From Bdellovibrionales bacterium (lineage in GTDB: Bacteria > Bdellovibrionota > Bdellovibrionia > Bdellovibrionales > UBA1609): a DNA stretch of 64,000 nt. The notes beneath the pieces are model-generated. The model saw only the letters and a program-made list of their open reading frames with translations, was not told the DNA's origin and made no database searches. The position numbers and the translations under genes are program-made. The stretch covers positions 1,306,743 through 1,370,742 of the forward strand of contig OZ241325.1 of NCBI GenBank assembly GCA_965200025.1, written 5' to 3'. Position 1 is the stretch's first letter. Every line of letters starts with the position of its first letter. Positions 11,384-49,905 of the stretch are shown one piece after another.

Positions 11384-11461
11384 GACCACGTAGCTCAGTC
11401 CGGATAGAGCAAGAGTTTCCTAAACTCTAGGTCGCAGGTTCAACTCCTGCCGTGGTCGCCA
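11384..11461 (+). tRNA. tRNA-Arg (anticodon CCT)
   Basis: Hand fold: acceptor GACCACG/CGTGGTC, D arm GCTC..GAGC, anticodon arm AGAGT-TTCCTAA-ACTCT, T arm GCAGG-TTCAACT-CCTGC, and an encoded CCA. Confidence 0.9.
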
Positions 11462-11548
11462 CTTTTGTTTTTCTTACCAATGACAACTATAATTAACTCA
11501 TATTTCAGTCGTTTTAGGTCATCCGGAATACATATTGAACTTCCCACC

Positions 11549-22886: not shown

Positions 22887-22963
22887 CGGAGAGTGGCGCA
22901 GCCCGGTAGCGCATCTGCTTTGGGAGCAGAGGGTCGCAGGTTCAAATCCTGTCTCTCCGACCA
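22887..22963 (+). tRNA. tRNA-Pro (anticodon TGG)
   Basis: Hand fold: acceptor CGGAGAG/CTCTCCG, anticodon arm TCTGC-TTTGGGA-GCAGA, T arm GCAGG-TTCAAAT-CCTGT, and an encoded CCA. Confidence 0.9.
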
Positions 22964-25914: not shown

Positions 25915-26053
25915 ATGGAAAGTTTAATATATAGTTCTCTAAATTTTTACAGTGGCATTTCTTTTTAAGAGTCAAATCTTTTAAACAAACTGTAACAGAA
26001 GGGCATAAACTTTCTTTCCAGGAGGATTTTTTTAAAAAATAAGGAATTAAATA

Positions 26054-27847
26054 ATGAGAATAATTAAAATTATTATAAATAACTTTAGAGGAGTTAAAAA
26101 AAGTGAAATTTATTTTCCAAATCATGGAGTTCTTGTTGGTGATAGCAATGTAGGAAAATCAACAATTTTTGAAGCCATTGATCTGGTTTTGGGTCCAGAG
26201 AGAATGAGAAAAAAACCAGTTATTGATGAACATGATTTTTTTGCTGGTGATTATTTAAGTTTAGAAAAGAAGTTAATCAAAATTAATATTGAAGTAACAG
26301 CAGTGAATTTAAATAAAGAACAAGAAACCTATTTTAAAGATCATATTGAATGGTGGGATATTAACCAAGGTCAAATTTTAGACAGCCCACCCCCTGAAGC
26401 TACAGATGCAAACACTGTATTATCAGCCATCAGGTTTTCTTTCGAAGGAAAATATGATGAGGAAGAGGACGATTTTATCGGAAACACATATTTTCAACAT
26501 CCATTAAGAGATGATGGAGGAAAAAATCATCTTAGTACAAAAGATAAAAGAATGTGTGGATTTCTTTTTTTAAGAACTCTTAGAACAGGATCAAGAGCAT
26601 TAAGCTTAGAAAGAGGTTCATTGTTAGATATTATTTTAAATATTAAAGAAATTAAAATTAATATGTGGGAAGAGATTTTAGAAAAATTAAGATCTGTTTC
26701 TATTGCTGACAAATCTGAACTGGGAGTGACCAATGTATTATCTGATGTAAAAAAAGAACTAAGCTCATTGGTTACATCTGAATGGGGTACAAATCCTCAA
26801 ATAAAAACTTCTGATCTAACAAGAGAAGGGTTACGAAAAGTACTGAATGTGTTTATGGAAACGGGAGTCAAAAATATAAAAGGCCACAAACATATTGTGC
26901 CATTTAAAAAACAAGGAACAGGAACAATCAACATGCTGGTTCTTTCAATGCTATCCATAATTGCAAATTTAAAACAAAATGTAATTTTTGCAATGGAGGA
27001 ACCTGAAACAGCAATACCCCCATATACTCAAAAAAGAATCATCAATCATATTAGAAAAAATTCAACTCAAGCACTTTTTACTTCTCATAGTCCCTATGTA
27101 TTGGAAGAATTTGATCCTTCAGAGATTATTGTTCTCACTAATAGATTAGGTTTTATGGAATCAAAAAAAGTTACATTCCCAGCACATGTTAAAAGAAAAA
27201 ATTATAAACAGGAATTTAGAAAAAAATATTGCGAAGCGTTGCTGGCAAAAAAAATTTTAATAGTTGAAGGAAAAACAGAATATGATGCAATTCCGGTCGT
27301 TGCCCGTCGATTGCATGAAATCAACTCTCAAAAATTCTCCAGTTTGGAGGCTCTTGGAATAAGCATCATTAATGCTGAAACAGATTCTCAAATTGCATAT
27401 ATTGGGAAACATTTAAAAAACTTGGGAAAAATAACTTTAGCGATATATGACAAACAAGATGACAATCAGAATCTTCCAATAAAAAAAAATATAGATCACC
27501 CATTTGAATCTCCTGAAAAAGGATTTGAAAGCCTTATTATTAATAATGTTCCCTATCAAAAATTAAAGCAGTTTTTTATTGATATTTTTTCAGAAGGAAG
27601 CTGGCCCAGCCACTTATCCCACATAACTCCTAACAACTCTAGTAATGAAGCTGACATTAAAAAAGCTCTGAGTAAATACTTTCAGTGGTCAAAAGGTTTT
27701 GAAACTATAGCTAATTTATTGGAAACATGTAGTGAAAATGAAATTCCTGAATTTATAAAAGATACGCTTCTCTCAATAAAACATAAAGTGCAAAAAAAAT
27801 CTTTATCAGACCATCGAAGCTCTATAGAAAGTAATAATGAAAATTAA
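26054..27847 (+). CDS. gajA: OLD-family ATP-dependent nuclease (ABC-type ATPase + TOPRIM), GajA-like
   Basis: Walker A GDSNVGKST (26138-26164), Walker B-like VIFAMEEPE, then SHSPYV. The C-terminal TOPRIM-like region is ILIVEGKTEYDAIP...INAETDS...AIYDKQDD. The gene is adjacent to and overlaps a UvrD-like gene. Confidence 0.8.
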   Translation: MRIIKIIINNFRGVKKSEIYFPNHGVLVGDSNVGKSTIFEAIDLVLGPERMRKKPVIDEHDFFAGDYLSLEKKLIKINIEVTAVNLNKEQETYFKDHIEWWDINQGQILDSPPPEATDANTVLSAIRFSFEGKYDEEEDDFIGNTYFQHPLRDDGGKNHLSTKDKRMCGFLFLRTLRTGSRALSLERGSLLDIILNIKEIKINMWEEILEKLRSVSIADKSELGVTNVLSDVKKELSSLVTSEWGTNPQIKTSDLTREGLRKVLNVFMETGVKNIKGHKHIVPFKKQGTGTINMLVLSMLSIIANLKQNVIFAMEEPETAIPPYTQKRIINHIRKNSTQALFTSHSPYVLEEFDPSEIIVLTNRLGFMESKKVTFPAHVKRKNYKQEFRKKYCEALLAKKILIVEGKTEYDAIPVVARRLHEINSQKFSSLEALGISIINAETDSQIAYIGKHLKNLGKITLAIYDKQDDNQNLPIKKNIDHPFESPEKGFESLIINNVPYQKLKQFFIDIFSEGSWPSHLSHITPNNSSNEADIKKALSKYFQWSKGFETIANLLETCSENEIPEFIKDTLLSIKHKVQKKSLSDHRSSIESNNEN

Positions 27848-29555
27848 AATATGTGAAAAAAGAAACCGACTACTTTCATCTTCCAATAATTTAATTATTT
27901 TAGGTGGGCCTGGTTCGGGAAAAACCACAATTGCTTTGATAAAAGCAAAAGAAGAAGTAAAATCACTATCAAGTAGTCAAAAAATTTTATTTTTAAGTTT
28001 TGCTAGAGCTACAGTCGCTAAAGTTATCGAAAGCTCATCTCAATATATAGATAAAGTGTCCTTGAAATCCATTGAAATCAATACCTACCATGGATTCTTT
28101 TGGAATATTTTAAGAAGTCATGGTTATCTAATTAACAACAACTATCCTTTCAAAATTTTGAATGCAGCTGACGAGGCTGTGAAGATGGCAAATGTAGATC
28201 CAAAAGACAAGAGTATTACTCGTAAAAAAATATTTGAACAAGAAGGTATTGTAGCATTTAATTTGTTTTCTTCCCTGGTCAATAGGTTATTTTCAGGATC
28301 AAAAAAATTAAAATATATAATCTCAAGATCATATCCCATTATCATTGTTGATGAGTTCCAGGATACCAATATTGAGGAATGGGAAACAGTGAAGCTTTTA
28401 AGTGAAACTTCCAGAATTATTGCTCTCGCTGACCCTAATCAAAGAATCTATGATTTTAGAGGAGCTGATCCTGCTCGAATAGGTCAATTTATTGAGCAAT
28501 TAAAACCAGAAACATTCAATTTTGAAAATGAGAATAACAGGAGTTCAACCAAAGATATAACCACATTTGGAAATGACCTTCTTACAGGAGAAAACCAAAG
28601 AAAACAATATCGTGATGTCAAAATCTTTTTTTACAAATATTACGGAAATAACCGTCATGAAATCTATCATCCACTTAAAACGAAAGTAATGGAAGGAATT
28701 AAGAGATTAAATACCGGTATAGACTGGTCAATTGCAATATTACTCCCTACAAAATCTCAAATGTTACAAGCATCAAATTATTTTTCTTCTTCAAAAGACA
28801 AGTTACCTATTATTGAACATGATGTTGCCATTGACTCTGAAGGACCTGAACTTGCTGGAAATTTATTTGCTAAATTATTGGAAAATTTTACCTCAATAGA
28901 AGAAATAAAAAAGCAGATTATTATTCATCTCATAGACCACTTGAAAGGCAGAAAAGGAGATAACCCCACACAACAGGATTTAAAACTTTCAAGAGCATTA
29001 CAAAATTTGTTAAGTAAAAATAAAATTACTGGAACAAGACGGTTAAAATTAATAAAAGAAATAGAATTAATTGCCAATAAAAGATTTAATCTGAGATTCA
29101 CAGGTAATCCTTTGGATGATTGGCGAAGTAATGTAGATTTATTTAATAACTATAAAAATGAAGATGCTTTAAAAAATATCAAAGAAGATGCAAAGTATAT
29201 AAGATTATTACATATAGGTTCTCATCTCAGAGAATCTTTAAATCGCTCCTGGAAAGATTATGGTTGTTACAATAATGCCAGTAAAAATTTTCGATCAGTA
29301 ATTCAGAAAGAAAATTTATCCACAAATATTAAAAAATCTTCCAAAATTAATATAATGACTATACATAAATCCAAAGGAAAACAATTTAATGAAGTTTTTC
29401 TTTTTGAAGGACTTTATACAGGTCGATTTGTACGACAACCAAAAGAACAAAAAAGTGTTGACCAATCCAGATTAATCTTAAGAGTCGGTGCCACAAGAGC
29501 AATGGATCGGGTCACCATATTATCTCCTGATAGTAAAAAGTGTGAAATACTATAA
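27837..29555 (+). CDS. gajB: UvrD/PcrA/Rep-family SF1 helicase, GajB-like
   Basis: Motif I GGPGSGKTT (27903-27929), motif II IIIVDEFQDTN (28350-28364), TIHKSKGKQF and VGATRAMDRV. It overlaps the upstream gene by 11 nt. Confidence 0.8.
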   Translation: MKIKICEKRNRLLSSSNNLIILGGPGSGKTTIALIKAKEEVKSLSSSQKILFLSFARATVAKVIESSSQYIDKVSLKSIEINTYHGFFWNILRSHGYLINNNYPFKILNAADEAVKMANVDPKDKSITRKKIFEQEGIVAFNLFSSLVNRLFSGSKKLKYIISRSYPIIIVDEFQDTNIEEWETVKLLSETSRIIALADPNQRIYDFRGADPARIGQFIEQLKPETFNFENENNRSSTKDITTFGNDLLTGENQRKQYRDVKIFFYKYYGNNRHEIYHPLKTKVMEGIKRLNTGIDWSIAILLPTKSQMLQASNYFSSSKDKLPIIEHDVAIDSEGPELAGNLFAKLLENFTSIEEIKKQIIIHLIDHLKGRKGDNPTQQDLKLSRALQNLLSKNKITGTRRLKLIKEIELIANKRFNLRFTGNPLDDWRSNVDLFNNYKNEDALKNIKEDAKYIRLLHIGSHLRESLNRSWKDYGCYNNASKNFRSVIQKENLSTNIKKSSKINIMTIHKSKGKQFNEVFLFEGLYTGRFVRQPKEQKSVDQSRLILRVGATRAMDRVTILSPDSKKCEIL

Positions 29556-29652
29556 CCGACGTTTAATCTTTTTTAATTTTTCCACTGGTCTTTGGTTTTG
29601 AAGATATAGTCTTGCCATACCACCATATAGTCAACTTGAACCAACAAAACTT

Positions 29653-32600
29653 TCAGGCGGTGGCGTTTTCTGTACCGGGATGGGTGGCTTCATCCTCAAC
29701 AGAGGAAGCCACTGTACCAGGGAGTTCCACCTGCTCATCCTCTTCGGCCTCATTAAAAACCAGCTTCCAGTTTCGGTAAGCGTTTAAGCCGGTACCAGCG
29801 GGAATCAGCCGGCCCATCACAATGTTTTCTTTCAGGCCGGAAAGCTCATCCGCTTTGGACTGAACAGCCGCCTCCGTAAGTACCTTTGTAGTCTCCTGAA
29901 AAGAGGCTGCAGAAATCCAGCTGTCTGTACTTAAGGACATGCGGGTAATACCAATCAAAAGCACCTTGTATTGTACAGGCTTTCCACCTGTTTTTTGCAA
30001 ATGCCTGTTCACATTTATCACCTCTGCCCTGTCTATTTGATCCCCCACCAAATAGCGGCTGTCCCCAGGTTCCAACACCTCCACCTTCTTCAGCATTTGA
30101 GAGACAATCACCTCAATATGCTTGTCATTAATCACCACACCCTGAAGCCTGTAAACCGCCTGTATCTCATCAATCAGGTAAGAAGCTAAAGCATAAGTCC
30201 CGGATATGTGTAAAATATCATGGGGATCACTCAAACCATCCATAATGGTCTCCCCCATTTTAATATACTCCCCCTCTCTGACAGCAATATGCTTCCCCTT
30301 GGGAACCAGATACTCCCTTTGTTCCCCCTCTTTCGAAGTCACAATCACACTCTGCTTGCCTTTGGAACCTTTACCAAAACTTACAGAACCTTCAATTTCA
30401 CAAATAATGGCTGCATCTTTTGGTTTTCGGGCTTCAAAAAGTTCTGCCACCCGGGGAAGCCCCCCTGTGATGTCTTTCGTCTTGGTGGATTTTTTATGAA
30501 TCTTGGCTATCATATCCCCGGCACGAATCTGATCTCCGTGGGAAACCAAAACCTGTGCCCCCACAGGAATGGTGTAAGAAATGGGAGTCCCCCTGTCTGC
30601 AAATATCAAAGCCTTTCCCTTTCCGTCCACCAAAGCAATGCTGGGTTTTTGATCCGAAGATTTGCTCTTAATAATAATCTTGGTGGAAAAACCGGTCACC
30701 GCATCCACCTGCTCTGTCATGGAAACACCCTCCTCAATATCAATAAACTTCACAAAGCCGTTCTCATCAGCCACAATAATGTTGGAGTAAGGATCCCACT
30801 CAGCCAGCAAATCCCCTTTATTGACCTGATCTCCATCCTTTACACTCAGTACAGAACCATAAGGAACCTGCAGGCGATCCCGCTCCCGGCCCGTGCCATC
30901 TGTAATAACAATCTCCCCGCTCCGGTTAATCACCCGAAGTTTGCCATGCCGGTTGACCACAGAAGTCACATTCTCAAACTGCACCTTTCCACTGTAACGG
31001 GTGGTGTGCACAGACTGCTCAATGGAACGGGAGGCCGTACCCCCTGTGTGAAAAGTCTTCATCGTCAGCTGTGTCCCCGGTTCCCCAATGGACTGGGCGG
31101 CTATCACCCCCACAGGTTCGCCCAAATTGACTGTTTTTCCCCGGGCCAAATCCCTTCCATAACATTTGATGCAAATTCCCCTGTGAGCTTTACAGGTTAA
31201 AGACGATCGGATTTTCACCGACTCAATACTTAAGGACTTCAGTTCCTCCAGAACATACTCATCCAGCTCCTCACCGGCTTTGACAATCACTTCTTTGGTT
31301 TCCGTATGAATAATATCCTCAAAACTGGTGCGACCCAAAACCCTGTCACTTAAAGACTGCACCATACCACTGCCCTCTCCCGGGGCCCGCACAGTTACAA
31401 ACTCTTCTGTCTTGCAGTCCATTTCAGTAATCACCACATCCTGTGCCACATCCACCAGCTTACGGGTCAGGTACCCGGAGTTGGCTGTTTTTAAAGCTGT
31501 GTCTGCAAGTCCTTTTCTGGCCCCATGTGTGGAAATAAAATACTGAAGCACAGTCAAACCCTCCCGAAAGTTGGCGGTAATGGGAGTTTCAATAATCTCC
31601 TGTGAGGGTTTTGCCATAAGTCCCCTCATTCCCGCCAGCTGGCGAATTTGGGCGGCAGATCCCCTGGCCCCGGAATCCGCCATAATAAAAATGGAGTTAA
31701 AACTGTCGGATTCCACCTGCGTGCCGTCTTTCAGTGTAAAAGAATCTTTTTCCAGATTGTTCATCATTTCTTTTGCCACCTGGTCCCCACACTGAGTCCA
31801 TATATCCACCACTTTGTTATATCTTTCACTGTCGGTGATCAGACCCTCATCGTATTGGGTTCTGATCTCATCCACTTCCTTTCGGGCCTGAGACAAAAGT
31901 TTTTCTTTGGACTTGGGAATCACCAGGTCATCCAGACAGATGGAAATACCGGCCAGTGTGGAATACTTATACCCATAGTTTTTTAAACCATCCGCCAGAA
32001 GAACAGTCTTTTTTCCCCCACACAATCTGAAAGTTCTGTCAATGAGTTCTGCCAGGGCTTGCTTGTTCATGGTTTTGTTGTAACACTCCACCGGTACTTC
32101 CGGAGGAATAATATCACTCAACAAAGCACAACCCACGGAAGTGTCCATCAGTTTGTTTTTCATCCGACACTTGATAGCCGCCTGCAAATCCACATACCCG
32201 TTCTCATGGGCGTAAATCACATCCTGCACACTTCCGAAAACAGCCCCTGTCCCCTTTGCTCCAGGGCGAATTCTGGTCATCCAGTAAATCCCCAACACAA
32301 TATCCTGTGTGGGATTGATAATGGGTTTTCCGTTGGCAGGGCTTAAAATGTTGTTGGTGGACATAATCAGAACCCGGGATTCCACCTGAGCCTCCACCGA
32401 AAGAGGCACATGGACAGCCATCTGATCCCCATCAAAGTCCGCATTAAAAGCTGTACAAACCAAAGGGTGAAGCTGAATGGCCTTGCCTTCATGAAGAACC
32501 GGCTCAAAAGCCTGAATACCCAGGCGATGCAGAGTGGGGGCCCGGTTCAACAGCACAGGATGCTCTTTCACCACTTCAGACAAAATATCCCAAACCTCCA

Positions 32601-42504: not shown

Positions 42505-42731
42505 TTGAATTTTCTCCTCTTTTTGTGGTTTTTTTGCCTTTTTTTATGCCAAGGTGCATAAACACCACACCCCACCGGCCCAAAAAAAGACGCTTTTTTT
42601 GTATATTCAGCTTTTTTTAAAAATGCAAGCCTTATTTTCTATTTTACTTTTCAGACTTTGTCCACTGTCTTTTTTATCCCATTATAAAGGGGCAAAAGGG
42701 GGGCAAAACCTGTCAAAGTTTCAGACAGATC

Positions 42732-43601
42732 TCAAAAAAACAGCTGTTTGAGGGCCTGTTTCCAAAACAGACAACGGACCCCCTCCACCTGTTGATCTCT
42801 TCTTTGTTGTGACCACAGCTGGGGTTCGCATTCTGAAAACCAGTCTTTTTTAAACCGGCACAAAGATTTGATATGTGTTTTTTGAACATACTCTGTGGAT
42901 TTGATTTCCACCAAAACATCTTTTTTCCCTGGTCGTTCTATAATCAGATCCACTTCATTTTGATCTTTGGTCTTGAGATAATAAAAATTAAAGTCTTTTC
43001 TGAGGTATTCATTCAGGTAAAAGCATTCCAAAATCATTTTATGCTCAAAAGCCTGACCATAAGTGTATGTGCTTTTCAAAAGTGGTAAGCTGGTGTGTGC
43101 CTCCAGTGCCCGTTTAACACCTGTGTCAAAAAAGTAAAATTTTGGAGACTGGTTTTGTTGTTTCCGTACAGATTTATGGTAACTGGGGAGAAAAAAACCA
43201 AGAAGGGTGTCTTCCAGAATGGAGAAATAGTTTTTCACTGTCTTGTCATCGGCTTTAATGTCCCGGGCTATAGAGGAATAATTTAAAATTTGCCCATTGT
43301 GCTGGGCCGCTATTTTGAGAAAGTTTCTAAAAGGGTTGAGTTTTCTGATGATCTGCTCAGAAATTACCTCTTCTTTCAGATAAGTTTGAACATAACTTTT
43401 TAAAAACTCTCTTTTATCTTTCGGATTTTTTTTATTCACCACTTCAGGAAGAGTGCCAAATTCCAGCATGGAATCCAAATGGGTTTTTGTATCGAGTTCA
43501 AACACAGAAAAAGGGAAAAGATAATAGAGTGGAGTTTTGGCATTCTTCGGATCATAATCCGAAATTATCCGATATTTTCGGAGTAAAATCCAGAACTTTT
43601 T
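42732..43601 (-). pseudogene. 5'-truncated AAA-ATPase / DUF4143-family gene remnant
   Basis: The C-terminal two-thirds are intact (NPFRNFLKIAAQHNGQILNYSSIARD..., PKFYFFDTG, EVDLIIE). The frame stays open 33 codons upstream of the GTG (…TPLYYLFPFSVFEL, the end of the AAA domain) without any start. The Walker-A part is absent, and the neighbouring gene's stop abuts at 43621. Confidence 0.6.
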
Positions 43602-43620: not shown

Positions 43621-45696
43621 TTAAAGAAACAAAGGCATACACAACAAGGCCCCTGCCAGCCCGGAAAGGCCTGCGAGCCTCTTCTTTGAAGCCTGGTTTT
43701 CTATTTGCTTTATGGCAGCCCGGGCCTCACTGCTTTTATATCCCTGTTTTGCAGCGGTTTGATACCATTTTTTAATCAATTCCTGCTCTTTGTCGGGGTG
43801 ATTCCATTGGCTTGAGGAGGTGCGGTAAGATTCGGCCAAATGGAAGCTTGCGGCCCCGTGGTTTTTTAAAGCCGCTTTACGGTAGTGTACTCTGGCTTTT
43901 TGCAAAGAACGGGGGATGGAAAAAAAACCTTTTTCAAACACCTGCCCCATAAAAAACATCACATCTTTACCATCTTTGGGAAGCCCGGAAGAAGAAACCA
44001 GCTTCCTTAAAAAACTCAAACCACTGCTTTTGTTTTCCTGTTGCTTCCAATATGAGTTATAATGTGTTAAATAAGAGGGATAAGCAATAATACGACTAAC
44101 AAGATCTGAAATGCTTTTCGACGAAGCCTTTGTCTGATAGACAGCATGAAAAACAACGAAAAGGGCAGGAGGATATCCCGCATTCATCATTTGTTTCATC
44201 CACCTCCTTGCAGCATCTGAAAAAAATGATTTTTCCTCCTCTGAGTCAGCCATTAAAACCTCATCCATGAGCATAAGATGGAGTAAGTATTGTGCTTCAA
44301 GCGAATTGTTTAAAGCGGCTTTTTCATACCAGTGTCTGATGAGGTCAATATCTTCAGTATATACGGCAAGCAAGCGGGCCAAAAAAAATTGAGAATCCCC
44401 ATGCCCGCTTAAAGCGGCTTTCTCTAACCATGGTTTGGCTTTGTTAAAAAGTTCTTCTCCCGGTTTTGTACTGTTATCATTTTTTTCCACGCGATACACC
44501 ATTAATGCTGCGTCAGAATGGATCCTGCCCAACCGGGCCTGAGAAGGGGTATGCCCATGCCGGGCTGCCTGCTCATAGAGAACCAAAGCTTTTTCAAAAT
44601 AATCTTCTTTAATTTCCAACCCTTGAGGCATTGCAGTTAAAGTTTGTTCAAAGTTTTTGATTTCCAGGTAGGTGGCATATCTAAAGAGATTCACAAAACT
44701 TTGTGAGGATTCCTCTTGAAGAAAATCCGATAAAAAATCCTTCTCACCGGTGGTTTGATTCATCGGTGTTAAACCACTGTCTGTCCCCAACATCAATGAA
44801 GAGACATAAGGCTTGATATCTTTTGAGGGTATGACTTCCCGTGCTTCGATATATTCCAAATTTCTGAACAAATACTCTTTTTTGGAATCTTTGCTTCCCA
44901 GTATTTTATATTTTTCTTTAAGGGCTTTGTCTGTTTCTTTTATACGTTGAGGGACATCTTTAACATGATTCAGGCTTTTCCACTGAAAGTCTGTGGAAAG
45001 AAGGTCTTTGACAAAAGACACAGGAACAGCCAAAACCCTGTGTTCATGATCTTTCAGGGAAACGGCCAACACATCCCCCGATGAGGAAAGAAGGGGACTG
45101 CCGGAAACCAGAAGTTCTTTTTGAGTGCCATCGTATATATGATAATCACTTTCTGAAAACCTGACCTGCCCCGTTAACATCTCCCCCTCTTGTGTTGCAA
45201 AATTCATGGCATGTAAATACACCTCAGCACTTCTTGTTTGTATTCCTGAAAGATGCGACAAAGAAAGCTGTGGCCCCTCATAACCCTTCACTGTCATCAC
45301 CACCAGTCCCAAAACTTCAGAAAAACTTCTGTAACCCACCACTTCCACAGAAGAAAGCGGATCATATTCATCGATGCTATAGAGATGACCTTGCATACCA
45401 TGTAACTTCAGATATTTGGGATTCAAAATTTTGTCTTCCTGTTTAACCAGATCTATACTGCTAACAAGAGTGTCCTGATTGATAAAAAAACCAAATCTGC
45501 CATCTTCCGGAAGAGATTCTTCAATCGTAATATATGCCACAGCACCAGAGGATTTTTGAACCGCAAGGGGCAAAGGGGCTTCCTGCTTCCCACCCTGGGC
45601 CTGAAGCACCTTACAAACCAAAAGCATGCCTGCCACAAAACAGGGTTTTATGGATTTCAGAATTTTTGTTTTCATAATGCCCTTTTTATAGCACAC
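43621..45696 (-). CDS. secreted protein: degenerate trypsin-like fold + Sel1 (TPR-like) repeats, paralogue 1
   Basis: It has a signal peptide (likely start MKTKIL at 45675). The N-terminal 230 aa parallel chymotrypsin-fold proteases (GFFINQDTLVSSIDLV, VVGYRSFSEVLGLVVMTVKGYEG, VSGSPLL). At least 5 Sel1 repeats follow (YEQAARHGHTPSQARLGRIH, LEKAALSGHGDSQFFLARLL, ...). The C-terminal tail is hydrophobic. Confidence 0.7.
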   Translation of the reverse strand: MCYKKGIMKTKILKSIKPCFVAGMLLVCKVLQAQGGKQEAPLPLAVQKSSGAVAYITIEESLPEDGRFGFFINQDTLVSSIDLVKQEDKILNPKYLKLHGMQGHLYSIDEYDPLSSVEVVGYRSFSEVLGLVVMTVKGYEGPQLSLSHLSGIQTRSAEVYLHAMNFATQEGEMLTGQVRFSESDYHIYDGTQKELLVSGSPLLSSSGDVLAVSLKDHEHRVLAVPVSFVKDLLSTDFQWKSLNHVKDVPQRIKETDKALKEKYKILGSKDSKKEYLFRNLEYIEAREVIPSKDIKPYVSSLMLGTDSGLTPMNQTTGEKDFLSDFLQEESSQSFVNLFRYATYLEIKNFEQTLTAMPQGLEIKEDYFEKALVLYEQAARHGHTPSQARLGRIHSDAALMVYRVEKNDNSTKPGEELFNKAKPWLEKAALSGHGDSQFFLARLLAVYTEDIDLIRHWYEKAALNNSLEAQYLLHLMLMDEVLMADSEEEKSFFSDAARRWMKQMMNAGYPPALFVVFHAVYQTKASSKSISDLVSRIIAYPSYLTHYNSYWKQQENKSSGLSFLRKLVSSSGLPKDGKDVMFFMGQVFEKGFFSIPRSLQKARVHYRKAALKNHGAASFHLAESYRTSSSQWNHPDKEQELIKKWYQTAAKQGYKSSEARAAIKQIENQASKKRLAGLSGLAGALLCMPLFL

Positions 45697-45787
45697 AAGC
45701 AGAAAAATTTATAAAAAAATAGTATGTTTTGAACTTCACAGGGGAACAAACAGGTAAAATTTACACTAAACAAGCACTCCTCAATGC

Positions 45788-45821
45788 ACCCACTTCCCCA
45801 CGCGGGGAAAAGCAAGTGGGT
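45788..45821 (-). other. nested stem-loop immediately 3' of tRNA-Gly(CCC)
   Basis: Outer 8-bp stem ACCCACTT/AAGTGGGT and inner CCCC-ACGC-GGGG (plus-strand reading), 6 nt after the tRNA CCA. No U-tract follows, so its role (terminator or processing) is unclear. Confidence 0.3.
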
Positions 45822-45827
45822 ATCAAA

Positions 45828-45902
45828 TGGAGCGGGAGACGGGACTCGAACCCGCAACCCTCAGCTTGGGAAGCTGATGCTCTACCATTGAGCCACCCCC
45901 GC
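45828..45902 (-). tRNA. tRNA-Gly (anticodon CCC)
   Basis: Hand fold: GCGGGGG acceptor, anticodon arm TCAGC-TTCCCAA-GCTGA, T arm GCGGG-TTCGAGT-CCCGT, and an encoded CCA. The 3' half is identical to tRNA-Gly(TCC) at 48234-48310. Confidence 0.9.
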
Positions 45903-45982
45903 TTATAACCCACCAACAAAAAAGCCTGAACAAAAACAACAAAGAACCTGAATAAAATTCAAAAATCCCCCCTGCCACAACC

Positions 45983-48064
45983 TTAATAAAAAAGATTCAG
46001 ACAAGCCCCCGACACCGAAGAAAATAAAAACATGTTATATGCCCCGTAACCCTGTTTTAACATTTCCTCTTTAAGGTTCTTTTCATAAGCTTTGATTTCC
46101 TCCAAATCAAGTGCTGCTCTTGGATGGCCACCCGCCTGTGCTTTTGTGAGCCATTTTTTAGCCTCTTCAACATTACTCCATGAATGGGAGGAGTGCTGCC
46201 GGTAAGTTTGTGCCAAATCAAACTGAGCCTCTGGATCCCCCTTCAGAGCCACTTTACGATACCACCTTCTGGCCTCCTCCAGGGAGGGAACCACAAAGTG
46301 GCCCCTGTGGTACAGCTGAGCCAAAGTGTAAGACGCTGGAGTGTGACCCTTAAGAGCCAGAAAGATCAGGTGATCCACCACTTTTTTTTCCTCCAGCTGA
46401 AAACGGTCAGGGTACAAAGTGGTCATAATTTTTTTATCAAAACAGGTCCATCCCCAGGTACAGGCCGCCTGGTAAAACACATGGGCTTTTTCATGATTTT
46501 TTTCCACACCCCATCCGTTTCTGTAAAGCTCTGCAATAGCAAAAAAAGCGGGACCATAACCCAAATTAGCCGCTCTTGCCCACCACTGAAGGGCCGCTTC
46601 CGCCACAAAACCCCTGACTTCGGTGTAAGATTTTTTGTTTTCCATTACCAAAGCATCCTTCATATAAAGGATGCCCAGCCTGTAAACCGCCTGAGGCAGA
46701 TCCTGAAGGGCTGCCTTCTCAAGCCAGTGCCTGGCTTTTTCCGAATCTTCATGGATCACAGCCAAAGCCAGCTGAGCGGAAGCATAGCCCTGCTCTGCCG
46801 CCTCTTTATGCCACTTCACAGAGGTTTTTATGAGGTTTGTTTTTTGCTGCCTGTTTAACAGATCTTTTTTTGCCTCATACTCTTTTAAATAAAACTGCCC
46901 CAAATGATACTGTGACAAAACATGCCCCCTCTGTGCCGCCTGTTCAAAATAAAAAATCATTTTTTGTCTGTAAGAATCCCAGGATTCAGAATTTTTAATA
47001 TCCTTTGCCGGGTGATTGACATTTTTAAAATATCCACGATCAAATAAAACTCTGTAGTACATGGTCGCCAGCTGATAAAAAAGAACAGACAAACTCTCCT
47101 GGGAGGGGTTTTCTTTAAGGATGGCGTTAATCAGTCTTTGTTTTTCCGCTATTCCCTCATCAGTGGAGTTGAGTATATAAAAATCCTTATGGGTGGGTGG
47201 TGGGGCATAATCCTTTGAAGCCATTATCAAAAAGGATCCTGTGGGGTCCATCCCCTCCCCTCTAAGGATACCCAAAAACCATCTTGCATAAAGATCGGTA
47301 AAATAATCTTTTTTACCGGGGTGGGGGCTGGCTTTCCGATCCAGCAGCTCCTGATCCTTGTGCCGGATTTTTTTAAACACCTGGTGTATATTTTTTAAAG
47401 TGTGCCATTCAAAATCTGTATCAATCAAATCCTTCAACAAAGACAGGGGAATGGCTTTTACCGACTGACCCCCAGTTTCCCGTTGAAAAACCACAGCCTG
47501 TAAGCTGCCACTGCCAGTTAACACAGGGCCTCCTCTGACAATATCCATTGCAGAGACATACTGATTGGTATGATAACTCCCTCCCCCCATCACCTGCCCA
47601 GTGAGGGTTTTTAAAACACCTTCTTTGTTAAAAACCAGCAGGTAAGATTCCCCATGGCCTGCCAAATAACCAAAATCCTTTTCAAAAGGCAGCACATAGC
47701 CTTCATAACCCTGTACTTTTAAAACAGCCAAATTCAACAAAAGGGAAAAAGACCTGTAACCAACCACTTTCGCATGAGGCAGTCTGATGCCCTTACCACG
47801 AAACAGTTTAAGGGATCCGGTGGGAAAGAGAACCCCATTTTTTTTGTCTGCCACAGCGTCTATACTGGTCACAAGTGTGTTTTTGTCTATAAAAAATCCC
47901 ACCCCTTTTGAAAAGGCGGACGAAACCAAAACCACTGCACTTTGTGCTTGCAGCTTTTTTTCCTGATAAGCCACAGGGTCCATGTCTGAAGCAAAAGTGT
48001 AAGCCATCCTGTAAACAGACAGAATCAAAAACACACTTTTTAAGTAAAACATTTCAAACCTCAC
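45983..48064 (-). CDS. secreted protein: degenerate trypsin-like fold + Sel1 repeats, paralogue 2
   Basis: The architecture matches 43621-45696 (GFFIDKNTLVTSIDAV, VVGYRSFSLLLNLAVLKVQGYEG, VRGGPVL). Sel1 repeats include FEQAAQRGHVLSQYHLGQFY, HKEAAEQGYASAQLALAVIH and LTKAQAGGHPRAALDL. Confidence 0.7.
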   Translation of the reverse strand: MRFEMFYLKSVFLILSVYRMAYTFASDMDPVAYQEKKLQAQSAVVLVSSAFSKGVGFFIDKNTLVTSIDAVADKKNGVLFPTGSLKLFRGKGIRLPHAKVVGYRSFSLLLNLAVLKVQGYEGYVLPFEKDFGYLAGHGESYLLVFNKEGVLKTLTGQVMGGGSYHTNQYVSAMDIVRGGPVLTGSGSLQAVVFQRETGGQSVKAIPLSLLKDLIDTDFEWHTLKNIHQVFKKIRHKDQELLDRKASPHPGKKDYFTDLYARWFLGILRGEGMDPTGSFLIMASKDYAPPPTHKDFYILNSTDEGIAEKQRLINAILKENPSQESLSVLFYQLATMYYRVLFDRGYFKNVNHPAKDIKNSESWDSYRQKMIFYFEQAAQRGHVLSQYHLGQFYLKEYEAKKDLLNRQQKTNLIKTSVKWHKEAAEQGYASAQLALAVIHEDSEKARHWLEKAALQDLPQAVYRLGILYMKDALVMENKKSYTEVRGFVAEAALQWWARAANLGYGPAFFAIAELYRNGWGVEKNHEKAHVFYQAACTWGWTCFDKKIMTTLYPDRFQLEEKKVVDHLIFLALKGHTPASYTLAQLYHRGHFVVPSLEEARRWYRKVALKGDPEAQFDLAQTYRQHSSHSWSNVEEAKKWLTKAQAGGHPRAALDLEEIKAYEKNLKEEMLKQGYGAYNMFLFSSVSGACLNLFY

Positions 48065-48233
48065 ACCTCATAAAGAACACCACAAATACATAACTCAACC
48101 GAAAAGCACAACCAAAAAATATAAAATTCAGGGAAAACACACAGGCATTATGTAATTTTTATATCCCTGTCCAGCAGGTGGTAACAGATTTTCAAAAAAC
48201 AAGGGGGAGTGTTTGTAATCATTTTCAAAACAA

Positions 48234-48310
48234 TGGAGCGGGAGACGGGACTCGAACCCGCAACCCTCAGCTTGGAAGGCTGATGCTCTAGCCAATTGAG
48301 CCACTCCCGC
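48234..48310 (-). tRNA. tRNA-Gly (anticodon TCC)
   Basis: Hand fold: acceptor GCGGGAG/CTCCCGC, anticodon arm TCAGC-CTTCCAA-GCTGA, T arm GCGGG-TTCGAGT-CCCGT, and an encoded CCA. Confidence 0.9.
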
Positions 48311-48952
48311 TTATAACTTCGCAAAGCCAGTGTAAAACCCAAAAGGGTTTTACACCCTGCCTCAGATGCTCCCCCAGGTCGCATCTGACACAGGGAACTT
48401 ACAAATCAAAGCTCACCGAAACACTGTCACTCTAACCAAACCACTCCCGCTTATAACTTCGCAAAGCCAGTGTAAAACCCAAAAGGGTTTTACACCCTGC
48501 CTCAGATGCTCCCCCAGGTCGCATCTGACACAGGGAACTTACAAATCAAAGCTCACCGAAACACTGTCACTCTAACCAAACCACTCCCGCTTATAACTTC
48601 GCAAAGCCAGTGTAAAACCCAAAAGGGTTTTACACCCTGCCTCAGATGCTCCCCCAGGTCGCATCTGACACAGGGAACTTACAAATCAAAGCTCACCGAA
48701 ACACTGTCACTCTAACCAAACCACTCCCGCTTATAACTTCGCAAAGCCAGTGTAAAACCCAAAAGGGTTTTACACCCTGCCTCAGATGCTCCCCCAGGTC
48801 GCATCTGACACAGGGAACTTACAAATCAAAGCTCACCGAAACACTGTCACTCTAACCAAACCACTCCCGCTTATAACTTCGCAAAGCCAGTGTAAAACCC
48901 AAAAGGGTTTTACACCCTGCCTCAGATGCTCCCCCAGGTCGCATCTGACACA
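48301..48952. repeat. perfect tandem repeat, 140-bp unit x 4.66 copies
   Basis: Units start at 48301, 48441, 48581, 48721 and 48861, and the last is 92 bp. I see no mismatch between copies. The first 10 nt of each unit equal the 5' end of tRNA-Gly(TCC). Each unit carries an 11-bp-stem hairpin (first copy 48330-48355) and a 7-8-bp-stem hairpin (48362-48388). Confidence 0.97.
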
Positions 48953-48957
48953 AATAA

Positions 48958-49041
48958 TGGTGGAGGGAGTAGGATTCGAACCTACGTAGGCAAAGCCAAC
49001 GGTTTACAGCCCGCCCCCTTTAACCACTCGGGCATCCCTCC
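48958..49041 (-). tRNA. tRNA-Tyr (anticodon GTA), class II with long variable arm; anticodon arm non-canonical
   Basis: Acceptor GGAGGGA/TCCCTCC, GTA in the loop context CTGTAAA, variable arm GGC-TTT-GCC, T arm GTAGG-TTCGAAT-CCTAC, and an encoded CCA. The 3' strand of the anticodon stem appears one C short (CCGT instead of CCCGT). Confidence 0.8.
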
Positions 49042-49052
49042 ACAAAAAACGG

Positions 49053-49125
49053 AGCTGGGTAAGGGAATCGAACCCCCAACCTGCTGATTACAAATCAGCT
49101 GCTCTACCAGTTGAGCTAACCCAGC
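49053..49125 (-). tRNA. tRNA-Thr (anticodon TGT)
   Basis: Hand fold: acceptor GCTGGGT/ACCCAGC, anticodon arm GCTGA-TTTGTAA-TCAGC, T loop TTCGATT. CCA is not encoded. Confidence 0.85.
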
Positions 49126-49173
49126 ACAAAAAACCCCTTACCACCCATAGTAACATTTTTTTAGATGGATTTG

Positions 49174-49905
49174 TTAAAATTTATTTTGTGATCTCAAACA
49201 CTCATTTAAAGCCAACACCACGGCATGAGACAAGTTAAAATGAGCAGCCCGGTAAGCCTGGGGAATAAACAGCAATTCATCACACAGGCTTTTAACAGTG
49301 AGACGGATGCCTTTTTCCTCCGAACCCACCACAAACAAAGACGGACCGGAAAAATCCTGCTTCCACAAAGATTTTTTGCCTTCACGGCTTAAGCCATACA
49401 CACTAAAGCCCGCCCGCTTTAAAGATTGAATGTGATGCACAGGAGAGCTGACAAACTCCACCGGTACATGCTCTGCCCCCCCGGCAGCCACCTTCATCAC
49501 AGAAGGGGTCAGGCCCACACTGCCTTTTGAAGGAAGCAAAAGCCCCTTAACCCCCATAAGCCAGGAACTTCGAAGTACAGAACCCAAATTTCTGGGATCC
49601 TCCACCCGGTCCAGGTACACCAAAACAGTTTTGAGCAGCAGGGGGTCAGGCAAATTCAACCGGGGCCGGCCTTTCAGAAGCAAAACAGCTCCCTGATGCC
49701 CCGGGCCTATTTTGTCCATCTTCTGTGCAGACATCACCTGCGTTTTTATTCCCCGGGCATGGGTTTTTAAAGCTTTAAGGGATTTTTTGCTTTCCCACCC
49801 GGGCTTGAGATACAAACCAACAACCTGTTTATGATGTACTTTTAAAGCTTCCCGGCAGGCATGAATACCTGTCACTGTGCGAAGCTTAAGGCCCGGGCTT
49901 CCCAA
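49174..49905 (-). CDS. rlmB: SpoU/TrmH-family RNA 2'-O-methyltransferase (RlmB-like)
   Basis: N-terminal substrate-binding region (GIHACREALK) and SpoU motifs (LDRVEDPRNLGSVLRS, VVGSEEKGI, IPQ....FNLSHAV). TTG start. Confidence 0.7.
   Translation of the reverse strand: MGSPGLKLRTVTGIHACREALKVHHKQVVGLYLKPGWESKKSLKALKTHARGIKTQVMSAQKMDKIGPGHQGAVLLLKGRPRLNLPDPLLLKTVLVYLDRVEDPRNLGSVLRSSWLMGVKGLLLPSKGSVGLTPSVMKVAAGGAEHVPVEFVSSPVHHIQSLKRAGFSVYGLSREGKKSLWKQDFSGPSLFVVGSEEKGIRLTVKSLCDELLFIPQAYRAAHFNLSHAVVLALNECLRSQNKF

Follow-up and report, generated by a model that had tools for sequence, protein, structure and literature searches.

A perfect 140-bp tandem array between tRNA-Tyr and tRNA-Gly in a Bdellovibrionales tRNA operon, read as a probable recent amplification of a spacer module

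The tandem repeats of the E. coli tyrT operon probably derive from unequal recombination between duplicated tRNA genes. In E. coli K-12 this array consists of 3.1 copies of a 178-bp unit, starts inside tyrV, and has units that each end in the tRNA-Tyr 3' end (AATCCTTCCCCCACCACCA); the repeat also has an annotated 29-aa tpr gene. One unit of the E. coli repeat gives rise to rtT RNA (RttR, RF00391; PMC3318445). A second point of reference is the 3'ETS of leuZ, a 53-nt spacer excised from a polycistronic tRNA precursor in E. coli that serves as an sRNA sponge (PMC8166272). Here we describe a repeat array that shares features with both, within a tRNA operon of a Bdellovibrionales bacterium, in a 64,000-nt stretch of contig OZ241325.1 (hereafter the window).

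All features of this operon lie on the minus strand, and coordinates are those of the window. Its first gene is tRNA-Thr(TGT) at 49051–49125 (ARAGORN; Rfam tRNA model, 70.7 bits), followed by a tRNA-Tyr(GTA)-like gene at 48958–49041 and by tRNA-Gly(TCC) at 48234–48310 (ARAGORN; Rfam, 71.4 bits). The first-pass annotation named the middle gene tRNA-Tyr. A gene is indeed present there, but ARAGORN has no name for it ('tRNA-???', anticodon 'gt'), because of a 1-nt deletion in the anticodon stem (CCC to CC) relative to five relatives; the same alignment shows a second 1-nt deletion in the variable-arm loop, and the Rfam score is 49.8 bits as against 62 bits for the orthologue in the closest relative. 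Should the genome have no second tRNA-Tyr, these deletions would be sequencing errors or else the mark of an unusual tRNA whose anticodon loop has 8 nt. Between tRNA-Tyr and tRNA-Gly lies the array (48301–48952, 652 bp), which TRF describes as period 140, 4.7 copies, 100% matches and 0 indels (score 1304), and in which a script finds the 140-bp unit four times without change, together with a 92-bp part of it that is likewise identical; one assembly is the source of both this copy number and this identity. The perfect 140-bp x 4.66 array noted at first reading is thus borne out, as are its layout of five 92-nt and four 48-nt blocks (recovered by script) and both of its boundaries: the ARAGORN/Rfam tRNA-Gly gene overlaps the first 10 nt of the array, and the array ends 5 nt from tRNA-Tyr. 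On direct reading, this 5-nt linker (48953–48957; TTATT in the tRNA orientation) joins the tRNA-Tyr CCA end to the array. Covariance-model hits fall on the units at 48731–48870, 48591–48730, 48451–48590 and 48311–48450.

Read in the tRNA orientation, the array is an 82-nt leader followed by four repetitions of a 58-nt segment plus the same leader, with the 5' end of the real tRNA-Gly as its final 10 nt. The leader copy that adjoins the real tRNA, the last of five, lies at 48311–48392 (direct reading) and is homologous to 11459–11547 of the closest relative; the others lie at 48451–48532, 48591–48672, 48731–48812 and 48871–48952, and in all five, two hairpins (H2 and H3) are followed by a terminal GTTATAA. 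The 58-nt segment, whose first copy is at 48813–48870 and whose others are at 48673–48730, 48533–48590 and 48393–48450, begins with GCGGGAGTGG, identical to nucleotides 1–10 of tRNA-Gly, continues with an apparent D-arm remnant (TTGGTTAGAG) and then has a third hairpin, H1 (48824–48857 in the first copy). We take this segment to be a probable decayed tRNA-Gly, so that the unit as a whole reads as a tRNA-Gly remnant joined to a structured tRNA-Gly leader. In shuffle tests, the score of remnant nucleotides 1–21 against tRNA-Gly nucleotides 1–25 was reached by two of 1000 shuffles, the score without the 10 identical nucleotides by 77 of 1000, and similarity beyond nucleotide ~22 was not significant; for this last reason, it is chiefly the position, and the layout found in the closest relative, that speak for a decayed tRNA, with positional support also from a weak covariance-model hit there over its Gly(CCC) gene and upstream leader. 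Neither ARAGORN nor Rfam RF00005, in gathering and E-value modes, called a tRNA inside the array.

The closest known analogue is tyrT/rtT, in which tandem repeats likewise sit in a tRNA operon and each unit carries a fragment of the adjacent tRNA. The present array is, as it were, a mirror image: its unit contains the 5' end of tRNA-Gly, upstream of that gene and between two tRNA genes, and has no tRNA-Tyr sequence, whereas the E. coli repeats lie downstream of the last tRNA and contain the tRNA-Tyr 3' end. The copies are 100% identical here as opposed to 95% in E. coli, and the unit has no conserved Tpr-like ORF. Nor is the array a member of the RF00391 family, to which it shows no likeness in sequence or by covariance model, since the only hit of that model in E-value mode (16.4 bits at 48958–49030, with a gathering score of 45 bits) is the tRNA-Tyr gene and not the unit. 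As with the 3'ETS of leuZ, the array is a non-tRNA segment of what would be a polycistronic tRNA precursor, may be excisable by normal tRNA processing and might itself function as an RNA (PMC8166272), but it is an internal spacer and not a 3' external one, and it is built of repeated 140-nt units where the E. coli spacer is a single 53 nt. Tandem tRNA duplications and tRNA pseudogenes offer a third likeness, as each unit matches tRNA-Gly over its first ~22 nt and, in a series of [leader + tRNA-Gly], has its remnant where a tRNA-Gly gene would stand; the remnant is, however, unrecognizable as a tRNA and yet 80–84% conserved in the closest relative, unlike a neutral pseudogene. Finally, CRISPR arrays also have regularly spaced, identical palindromic repeats, but here the copies do not differ anywhere in the 140-bp period and there are no unique spacers, so that the array is not CRISPR, as had been concluded from the first reading; the CRISPR-DR scores are sub-threshold (CRISPR-DR17, 18.7 bits against a 42-bit cut-off, which is chance level).

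Rfam, in gathering and E-value modes, returned only the flanking tRNAs and sub-threshold noise, so the unit falls in no Rfam family; metagenome scans with the exact hairpin and with a degenerate form of the conserved 5' segment gave no match, nor did a scan of viral sequences or distant blastn searches of phages and plasmids. It is not a dispersed repeat within the DNA compared, as no further copy came up in blastn searches of the entire window and of five related loci; weak hits at 19.4–21 kb are chance matches within coding sequence. A covariance model built from two sequences recovered only the known copies and one upstream paralogue in the closest relative.

A SpoU methylase gene followed by tRNA-Thr(TGT), tRNA-Tyr and tRNA-Gly(TCC) is conserved in order in all five related loci (L001–L005), with tRNA-Thr(TGT) the first gene after the methylase gene in these too. 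In four of them (L001, L003, L004 and L005) the Tyr–Gly spacer is 37–41 nt and has no array. The fifth, L002, is the closest relative and the only close one found: searches for homologues of the SpoU protein returned only L002–L005, those for homologues of the Sel1 protein only L002, and a scan of genome collections only one 39%-identical Bdellovibrio MAG. The host lineage is Bdellovibrio-related and sparsely sampled.

In L002 the layout is tRNA-Tyr, tRNA-Gly(CCC), 237 nt, tRNA-Gly(TCC), and the 237-nt spacer is homologous to our unit (blastn, 76% identity over 233 nt, E=6e-36). Global alignment of the unit with the full L002 copy gives 71% identity and z=14 against shuffles, and the two halves of the unit are separately significant (z=7 and z=5), while flanking intergenic DNA on either side is not alike (z=0.2 and z=-0.3). 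The best-conserved part is the remnant, which is 80–84% identical to L002 11403–11448. Direct reading and alignment also reveal a diverged, partial upstream leader copy (A) after tRNA-Gly(CCC), and this paralogue (Gly(CCC) plus leader A) is the weak covariance-model hit mentioned above (16.9 bits, E=0.015), so that the series in L002 runs Gly(CCC)-leader-remnant-leader-Gly(TCC). Judged from these alignments, L002 represents the ancestral state that was predicted, of 1.6 copies, and has a tRNA-Gly gene in the expected place of a remnant; the unit, having a homologous single copy at the same place in L002, is by the same reasoning older than the array; and, over the two genomes compared, the single module is shown to be under sequence constraint.

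The sequences just upstream of the tRNA-Gly genes and fragments tell a related story. In the window all six Gly-like 5' ends follow GTTATAA. The three in L002 all follow another motif, which is A-rich (agacaaa or acgaaa). Such concerted evolution of the Gly 5' flanks within each genome shows that recombination or conversion is active at the locus. It is a sign independent of the perfect identity of the copies, and both point, as the first-pass annotation had proposed, to recent expansion or homogenization.

H3, with an 11-bp stem and a 4-nt loop, lies at 48330–48355 in the copy next to tRNA-Gly and at 48470–48495, 48610–48635, 48750–48775 and 48890–48915 in the others (pattern count and folds); as had been reported, every unit has it, the 26-nt GTGTAAAACCC-AAAA-GGGTTTTACAC being counted five times against none expected from shuffles. 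The other reported hairpin, of 7–8 bp, is present as an 8-bp stem with an 11-nt loop (TCAGATGC-N11-GCATCTGA), our H2, once per leader, at 48362–48388 and then in steps of 140 bp up to 48922–48948. H3 pairing is kept in L002 with compensatory changes (GCGTAAAACCC/GGGTTTTATGC in copy B, the full one, and GTATAAAACC/GGTTTTTTAT in copy A): across the three copies pair 2 is T-A/C-G/T-A and pair 3 is G-C/G-U/A-T. Its loop is 4 nt or 7 nt depending on the copy, which is compatible with an RNA hairpin because such a hairpin tolerates this change. The covariation support is thin, given that the element occurs in only two genomes and that the two compensated pairs are both in one hairpin. H2 does not keep its base pairs in L002, where a different 6-bp hairpin (CCCTGC-GGA-GCAGGG) lies near that position. 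Fold energy favours the tRNA-sense strand over the antisense strand in the window (-56.9 versus -39.5 kcal/mol) as well as in L002 (-49.9, z=-2.7, versus -26.7, z=-1.0), and the centroid fold of the whole spacer retains H1 and H3 in every unit. A cloverleaf-like three-way junction with a closing stem, seen in the minimum-free-energy fold of the window, is not conserved in L002 and was rejected. The suggestion made at first reading, that the array might yield a repeated structured RNA, gains support from the constrained L002 homologue, the compensatory changes in H3 and the better-folding tRNA-sense strand.

We favour, with a probability of a little under 60%, the explanation that the array is a recent tandem amplification of an internal transcribed spacer module of the Thr-Tyr-Gly tRNA operon, this module consisting of the putative tRNA-Gly remnant, in which the first 10 nt and a trace of the D-arm survive, and of the hairpin-rich leader. 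The ancestor would have had the order leader-remnant-leader-tRNA-Gly, a layout itself probably descended from tandem [leader + tRNA-Gly] duplications; as this places two direct repeats of ~90 bp around the remnant, it is the expected substrate for unequal recombination. Unequal homologous recombination or replication slippage between these repeats could have expanded the module to 4.66 copies, and the same process may keep the copies identical. The array would have no promoter of its own, and transcription would enter it from the promoter of the operon, which is presumably upstream of tRNA-Thr. The unit sits between same-strand tRNA genes that are 37–41 nt apart in relatives, with no canonical terminator or promoter found inside the array by scan. 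In each unit the same scan also marked one alternative fold that weakly resembles a terminator, with TTTGGGTTTT after a 5-bp stem. Most likely, then, the array is transcribed through and excised as a hairpin-rich spacer RNA, with maturation of the tRNA-Tyr 3' end and of the tRNA-Gly 5' end (by RNase P) cutting it from the precursor and leaving an RNA of perhaps three hairpins per 140 nt. The sequence constraint on the module suggests an RNA-level role, for which processing or stability of the tRNA-Gly precursor and a spacer-derived RNA are the candidates. The additional copies are probably a neutral, unstable copy-number state.

Whether the additional copies might instead have been selected is the point on which the best-surviving alternative differs. 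There, the operon transcript would release the unit as a stable non-coding RNA with a function, like rtT or a sponge of the 3'ETS type, and amplification would have been selected because it raises the dose of this RNA four- to five-fold per transcript. The constraint on the unit relative to flanking DNA, the sense-strand structure with its compensated hairpin, and a host operon of a type that is normally very highly expressed would all suit such an RNA, and the excised, sponging 3'ETS of leuZ provides a precedent (PMC8166272). However, one copy suffices in L002, the perfect identity is equally well explained by a very young and possibly transient expansion, and no stable ITS fragment is reported according to the same review (PMC8166272). 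We regard selection for dosage as doubtful.

The first-pass annotation had also raised the possibility that each unit holds an active promoter, so that the array would fire repeatedly into tRNA-Gly and/or make 140-nt transcripts. The TTTACA-N15-TATAAG on which this was based does occur once in each unit, each hexamer matching the sigma-70 consensus at five of six positions, and a TATAAG is also found in leader A of L002, 8 nt upstream of the remnant; the stated position is not right, however, as the box does not end 1 nt before the tRNA start but overlaps it, the G of TATAAG being tRNA +1. Transcription would then start ~7 nt downstream, inside the tRNA, and the product would lack the 5' acceptor strand, which makes a complete tRNA-Gly impossible. 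The 15-bp spacing of the hexamers is outside the 16–18 bp range of sigma-70 promoters, and a scan of 47800–49400 returned 0 promoter-like sites, although this negative result is weak evidence because the scan missed the operon promoter too. Moreover, the -35-like hexamer is the 3' arm of H3, and upstream of the real tRNA-Gly(TCC) in L002 there is no TATAA box but GAAAGACAAA, the leader there reading ...GGTGAAAGACAAA directly before GCGGGAG. Tandem promoters feeding tRNA-Gly are improbable, and that part of the earlier proposal is not supported.

It could also be that the array is an artefact, the true locus having ~1.6 copies as in L002 and the extra ones arising from mis-assembly, or from polishing that erased differences between copies. 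Perfect identity is what such an error would produce, the genome is a single contig in collections, and the two homopolymer-type 1-nt deletions in the adjoining tRNA-Tyr are possibly sequencing errors. Yet 15 orthologous genes each give one unbroken, in-frame alignment to the L002 protein, from which it follows that indel errors are rare in the region; perfect tandem repeats are usually collapsed, not lengthened, in assembly; a 1.9 Mb contig suggests long reads able to span 652 bp; and the repeat architecture is corroborated by L002. An artefact is, on balance, hardly probable.

Less plausible are readings in which the repeat acts as DNA, with the 11-bp inverted repeats as operator or recombinase sites or the tRNA fragment as an att-type scar. 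While each palindrome is exact, integration at tRNA genes is common, and the Sel1-repeat genes downstream of tRNA-Gly are missing from L001, L003, L004 and L005, the spacing between half-sites varies (4 versus 7 nt) while pairing persists, and this is more in keeping with a hairpin than with a site bound by a dimer. As for a scar, the duplicated fragment is the tRNA 5' end, 130 nt upstream with only leader between, and the unit has no match in phage, plasmid or viral collections; an att scar is not supported on these grounds, and DNA-level function in general seems very improbable. Small-protein genes, with the tRNA strand encoding a 30-aa peptide like Tpr (MRPGGASEAGCKTLLGFTLALRSYKREWFG) or the opposite strand a 69-aa ORF, are the least probable of all and their coding potential was rejected, for although the ORFs recur in every unit and have a counterpart in the tpr gene of the E. 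coli tyrT repeat, the homologous frame in L002 is not kept (no ATG, and a stop after 11 codons), direct reading shows no Shine-Dalgarno-like sequence upstream of the ATG, and, 140 bp not being divisible by three, the longer ORFs are repeat artefacts whose frame changes between units.

The amplified spacer module is a modest curiosity and not a new kind of system. In practical terms, the array is likely a marker of variable copy number. It can also mislead assembly and annotation, since spurious ORFs are predicted along it. If the amplification reading is right, tRNA-operon evolution has been caught midway, with a duplicated tRNA gene decayed to a constrained spacer element and this element multiplied afterwards through recombination of the repeats that flank it, and the locus would be a second, independent example beside the tyrT/rtT repeats of E. 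coli. We give a low probability to the reading in which the 140-nt unit is a hitherto undescribed, constrained structured RNA that arose from a tRNA-Gly gene with its leader and is cut from the internal spacer of a tRNA operon, at a dose set by an unstable tandem copy number. Were this true, bacterial tRNA operons would have their first functional internal-spacer RNA, and rtT an independent counterpart in mirror image. The locus would be, in this respect, a simple test case for internal spacers of tRNA precursors as functional RNAs, and for their tuning by copy number.

The tandem array at 48301-48952 is a real sequence feature. TRF returned a period of 140, 4.7 copies, 100% matches, no indels and a score of 1304, and a script resolved the array into four 140-bp units and a partial one of 92 bp, all identical, bearing out the layout of five 92-nt and four 48-nt blocks described in the first-pass annotation. 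The 11-bp hairpin with a 4-nt loop noted there occurs five times against none expected, and the second, 8-bp hairpin of the unit was also found. Copy number and perfect identity come from one assembly, whose 1.9-Mb contig suggests long-read data. Each of 15 orthologous proteins from L002, the closest related locus, aligned to the window as one in-frame segment; indel errors are therefore rare in the region.

All relevant genes lie on the minus strand. Read in the tRNA direction, a SpoU-type rRNA methylase gene (49905-49174) is followed by tRNA-Thr(TGT) (49125-49051), a tRNA-Tyr-like gene (49041-48958), a 5-nt linker, the array, tRNA-Gly(TCC) (48310-48234), a Sel1-repeat protein gene, tRNA-Gly(CCC) (45902-45828), a second Sel1-repeat gene, a DUF4143 gene (42732-43505) and tuf (42504-41320), then tRNA-Trp, secE, nusG and ribosomal protein genes. 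The final 10 nt of the array form the true 5' end of tRNA-Gly(TCC). The tRNA-Tyr at 48958-49041 (minus strand), adjoining the array, has two 1-nt deletions relative to all five related loci. One shortens CCC to CC on the 3' side of the anticodon stem, which is left with 4 bp and a loop of 8 nt; the other falls in the variable-arm loop. ARAGORN labels the gene 'tRNA-???', and it scores 49.8 bits with Rfam versus 62 bits in L002. The deletions are either homopolymer sequencing errors or the mark of a damaged or unusual tRNA-Tyr; genes nearby contain no frameshifts.

With GCGGGAG placed first for description, the unit divides in two. Its first part (58 nt, the remnant) opens with tRNA-Gly nt 1-10, followed by a D-arm trace (TTGGTTAGAG versus TTGGCTAGAG), and its collinear tRNA likeness spans only ~22 nt. 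Its score against tRNA-Gly was reached by 2 of 1000 shuffles with the 10 identical nt and by 77 of 1000 without them, and neither ARAGORN nor the Rfam tRNA model recognized a tRNA in it. The second part (82 nt, the leader) is the sequence immediately 5' of the real tRNA-Gly and bears hairpins H2 and H3.

Five related loci, L001-L005, were found via the neighbouring SpoU protein, which is 39% identical in L001 (a Bdellovibrio MAG) and 57-60% in L002 to L005. The order SpoU, Thr(TGT), Tyr, Gly(TCC) is kept in all five. In L001, L003, L004 and L005, the Tyr-Gly region holds no repeat, its spacer measures 37-41 nt, and Thr(GGT) and tuf follow directly. The Sel1-gene insertion is common to L002 and the window. 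At 43621-48310 (minus strand), Gly(TCC), Thr(GGT) and tuf no longer stand together in their ancestral arrangement, and the pairing of a tRNA-Gly with a ~690-aa Sel1-repeat protein gene occurs twice (Gly(TCC) with 693 aa, Gly(CCC) with 691 aa); the proteins are 30% identical, the tRNA-Gly genes 97% identical over 59 nt. The tRNA-Thr(GGT) found 5' of tuf in all five relatives is missing from the window.

In L002 the order is Tyr, 31 nt, Gly(CCC), 237 nt, Gly(TCC), and the 237-nt spacer contains one full unit homologue (11403-11547, opening with GCGGGAGTAGGGTTGGTTAGAGTG) that aligns to the window unit end to end. With the tRNA included, blastn aligned 233 nt at 76% identity (E=6e-36); global alignment of the homologue to the unit gave 71% identity (z=14, dinucleotide shuffles), and the halves were also alignable separately (remnant minus the 10 tRNA-identical nt, z=7; 3' 95 nt, z=5). 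Because coding DNA of the window and L002 is only 68-75% identical and the adjoining intergenic DNA cannot be aligned (SpoU to tRNA-Thr, z=0.2; tRNA-Gly to Sel1, z=-0.3), the unit is conserved about as well as genes. A second, more diverged leader lies 5' of the homologue, directly after Gly(CCC), with GGTTATAAGG and an H3-like hairpin (GTATAAAACC-TGTTTAA-GGTTTTTTAT). A covariance model trained on two full units only, those of the window and L002, matched it at 16.9 bits (E=0.015), with Gly(CCC) at the position of the remnant. This layout therefore points to an ancestral series of tRNA-Gly plus leader in which the middle tRNA decayed; the common ancestor would thus have carried leader-remnant-leader-tRNA-Gly, ~1.6 copies of the present unit.

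Two ~90-bp direct repeats flanking a 50-60-bp segment form a textbook substrate for slippage or unequal homologous recombination, in which every event would gain or lose exactly one 140-bp module and repeated events would homogenize the copies. Every GCGGG(A/G)G start in the window, six in total (those of the four remnants, of Gly(TCC) and of the distant Gly(CCC)), follows a GTTATAA, while in L002 an A-rich motif, agacaaa or acgaaa, precedes all three. These genome-specific 5' flanks are independent evidence of conversion at the locus. The array is best explained as the amplification of an ancient spacer module that goes back to a duplicated tRNA-Gly.

Several smaller features were seen around these genes. 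An imperfect 22-bp x 2.4 tandem repeat (AACAAAAAAGACCTGAACAAA, 45914-45965) lies directly upstream of tRNA-Gly(CCC). The 257-aa ORF at 42732-43505 (minus strand) matches solely the DUF4143 domain (residues 51-203); members of the family typically carry an AAA ATPase domain at the N-terminus as well, so this gene may be a truncated one. Upstream of tuf, the 227-nt intergenic stretch at 42505-42731 is, unlike other intergenic DNA, 73% identical to L002 (z=19); it could represent a conserved leader or promoter of tuf, or some other non-coding element. Farther away, 24001-30000 has a GC content of 0.30-0.34 versus ~0.44 elsewhere; this block, which begins ~1 kb downstream of tRNA-Pro(TGG) (22887-22963), may be an island gained by horizontal transfer. 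The public annotations of L002 (11559-11879, overlapping tRNA-Gly(TCC) and the spacer downstream) and L005 (1306-1533) contain short hypothetical ORFs antisense to tRNAs, probably spurious; that L002 spacer also has, by eye only, an apparent ~60-nt imperfect direct repeat (...ctgaaaac...cccaaacgatgggg...).

The first-pass annotation suggested that, should its promoter-like boxes be functional, the array would serve as tandem promoters feeding tRNA-Gly and/or yield a repeated 140-nt structured RNA. A -10-like TATAAG is indeed present, but rather than ending 1 nt before the tRNA it overlaps it, its G being tRNA position +1; transcription would therefore start near tRNA nt +7, making an intact tRNA-Gly impossible. 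Moreover, the -35-like hexamer, spaced 15 bp from the -10-like box, is merely the 3' arm of H3, and the box is missing 5' of Gly(TCC) in L002. A sigma-70 scan returned no site in the array; it also missed a promoter for the whole operon and is therefore insensitive in this organism. Tandem promoters are thus not supported. Nor is the unit a dispersed repeat (no further copies in the window or related loci, none in the metagenome, viral, phage and plasmid collections searched), a member of any Rfam family or, as already held, a CRISPR; its 30-aa ORF is not conserved, the L002 frame stopping after 11 codons, and 69-aa plus-strand ORFs are frame-hopping repeat artefacts.

Since same-strand tRNA genes, normally 37-41 nt apart, flank the array, and scanning found no canonical terminator or promoter within it, we infer that transcription from the operon promoter would read through it, its RNA then being removed as tRNA ends mature. 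One unit of sense-strand RNA has a predicted fold of -56.9 kcal/mol (z=-5.2) with three hairpins, the antisense strand only -39.5; the L002 homologue gives -49.9 (z=-2.7) and -26.7 (z=-1.0). This asymmetry stems from G-U pairs and speaks for an RNA transcribed in the tRNA orientation. The two-unit consensus fold retains a 5-bp GCGGG stem, the invariant 7-bp H1 stem in the remnant (UUAGAGU/GCUUUGA) and H3; H2 pairs are not kept one for one in L002. In H3, pair 2 is U-A in the window and C-G in copy B, the leader within the L002 homologue, pair 3 is G-C, G-U and A-U across three copies, and the loop is 4 nt in one genome versus 7 nt in the other. Such pairing conservation, from two genomes only, is suggestive, short of proof. 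H1 and H3 are retained in all units in the centroid structure of the entire 647-nt spacer.

Among known systems the array comes closest to the distal repeat in the E. coli tyrT operon, checked here in K-12: a 178-bp x 3.1 array of 95% identity that opens inside tyrV, each unit closing with the tRNA-Tyr 3' end, with rttR and tpr annotated. One unit of that repeat encodes rtT RNA (PMC3318445). The likeness is one of architecture and presumed origin. Here, however, in mirror image, the fragment is a tRNA 5' end and the array lies upstream of its own tRNA, within the operon; the sequences are unrelated and RF00391 is unmatched, placing the array outside that family. Spacer-derived functional RNAs such as the leuZ 3'ETS are a second reference point, where, according to a review, no stable internal-spacer fragment has yet been reported (PMC8166272). 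The unit may plausibly act as a structured spacer RNA.
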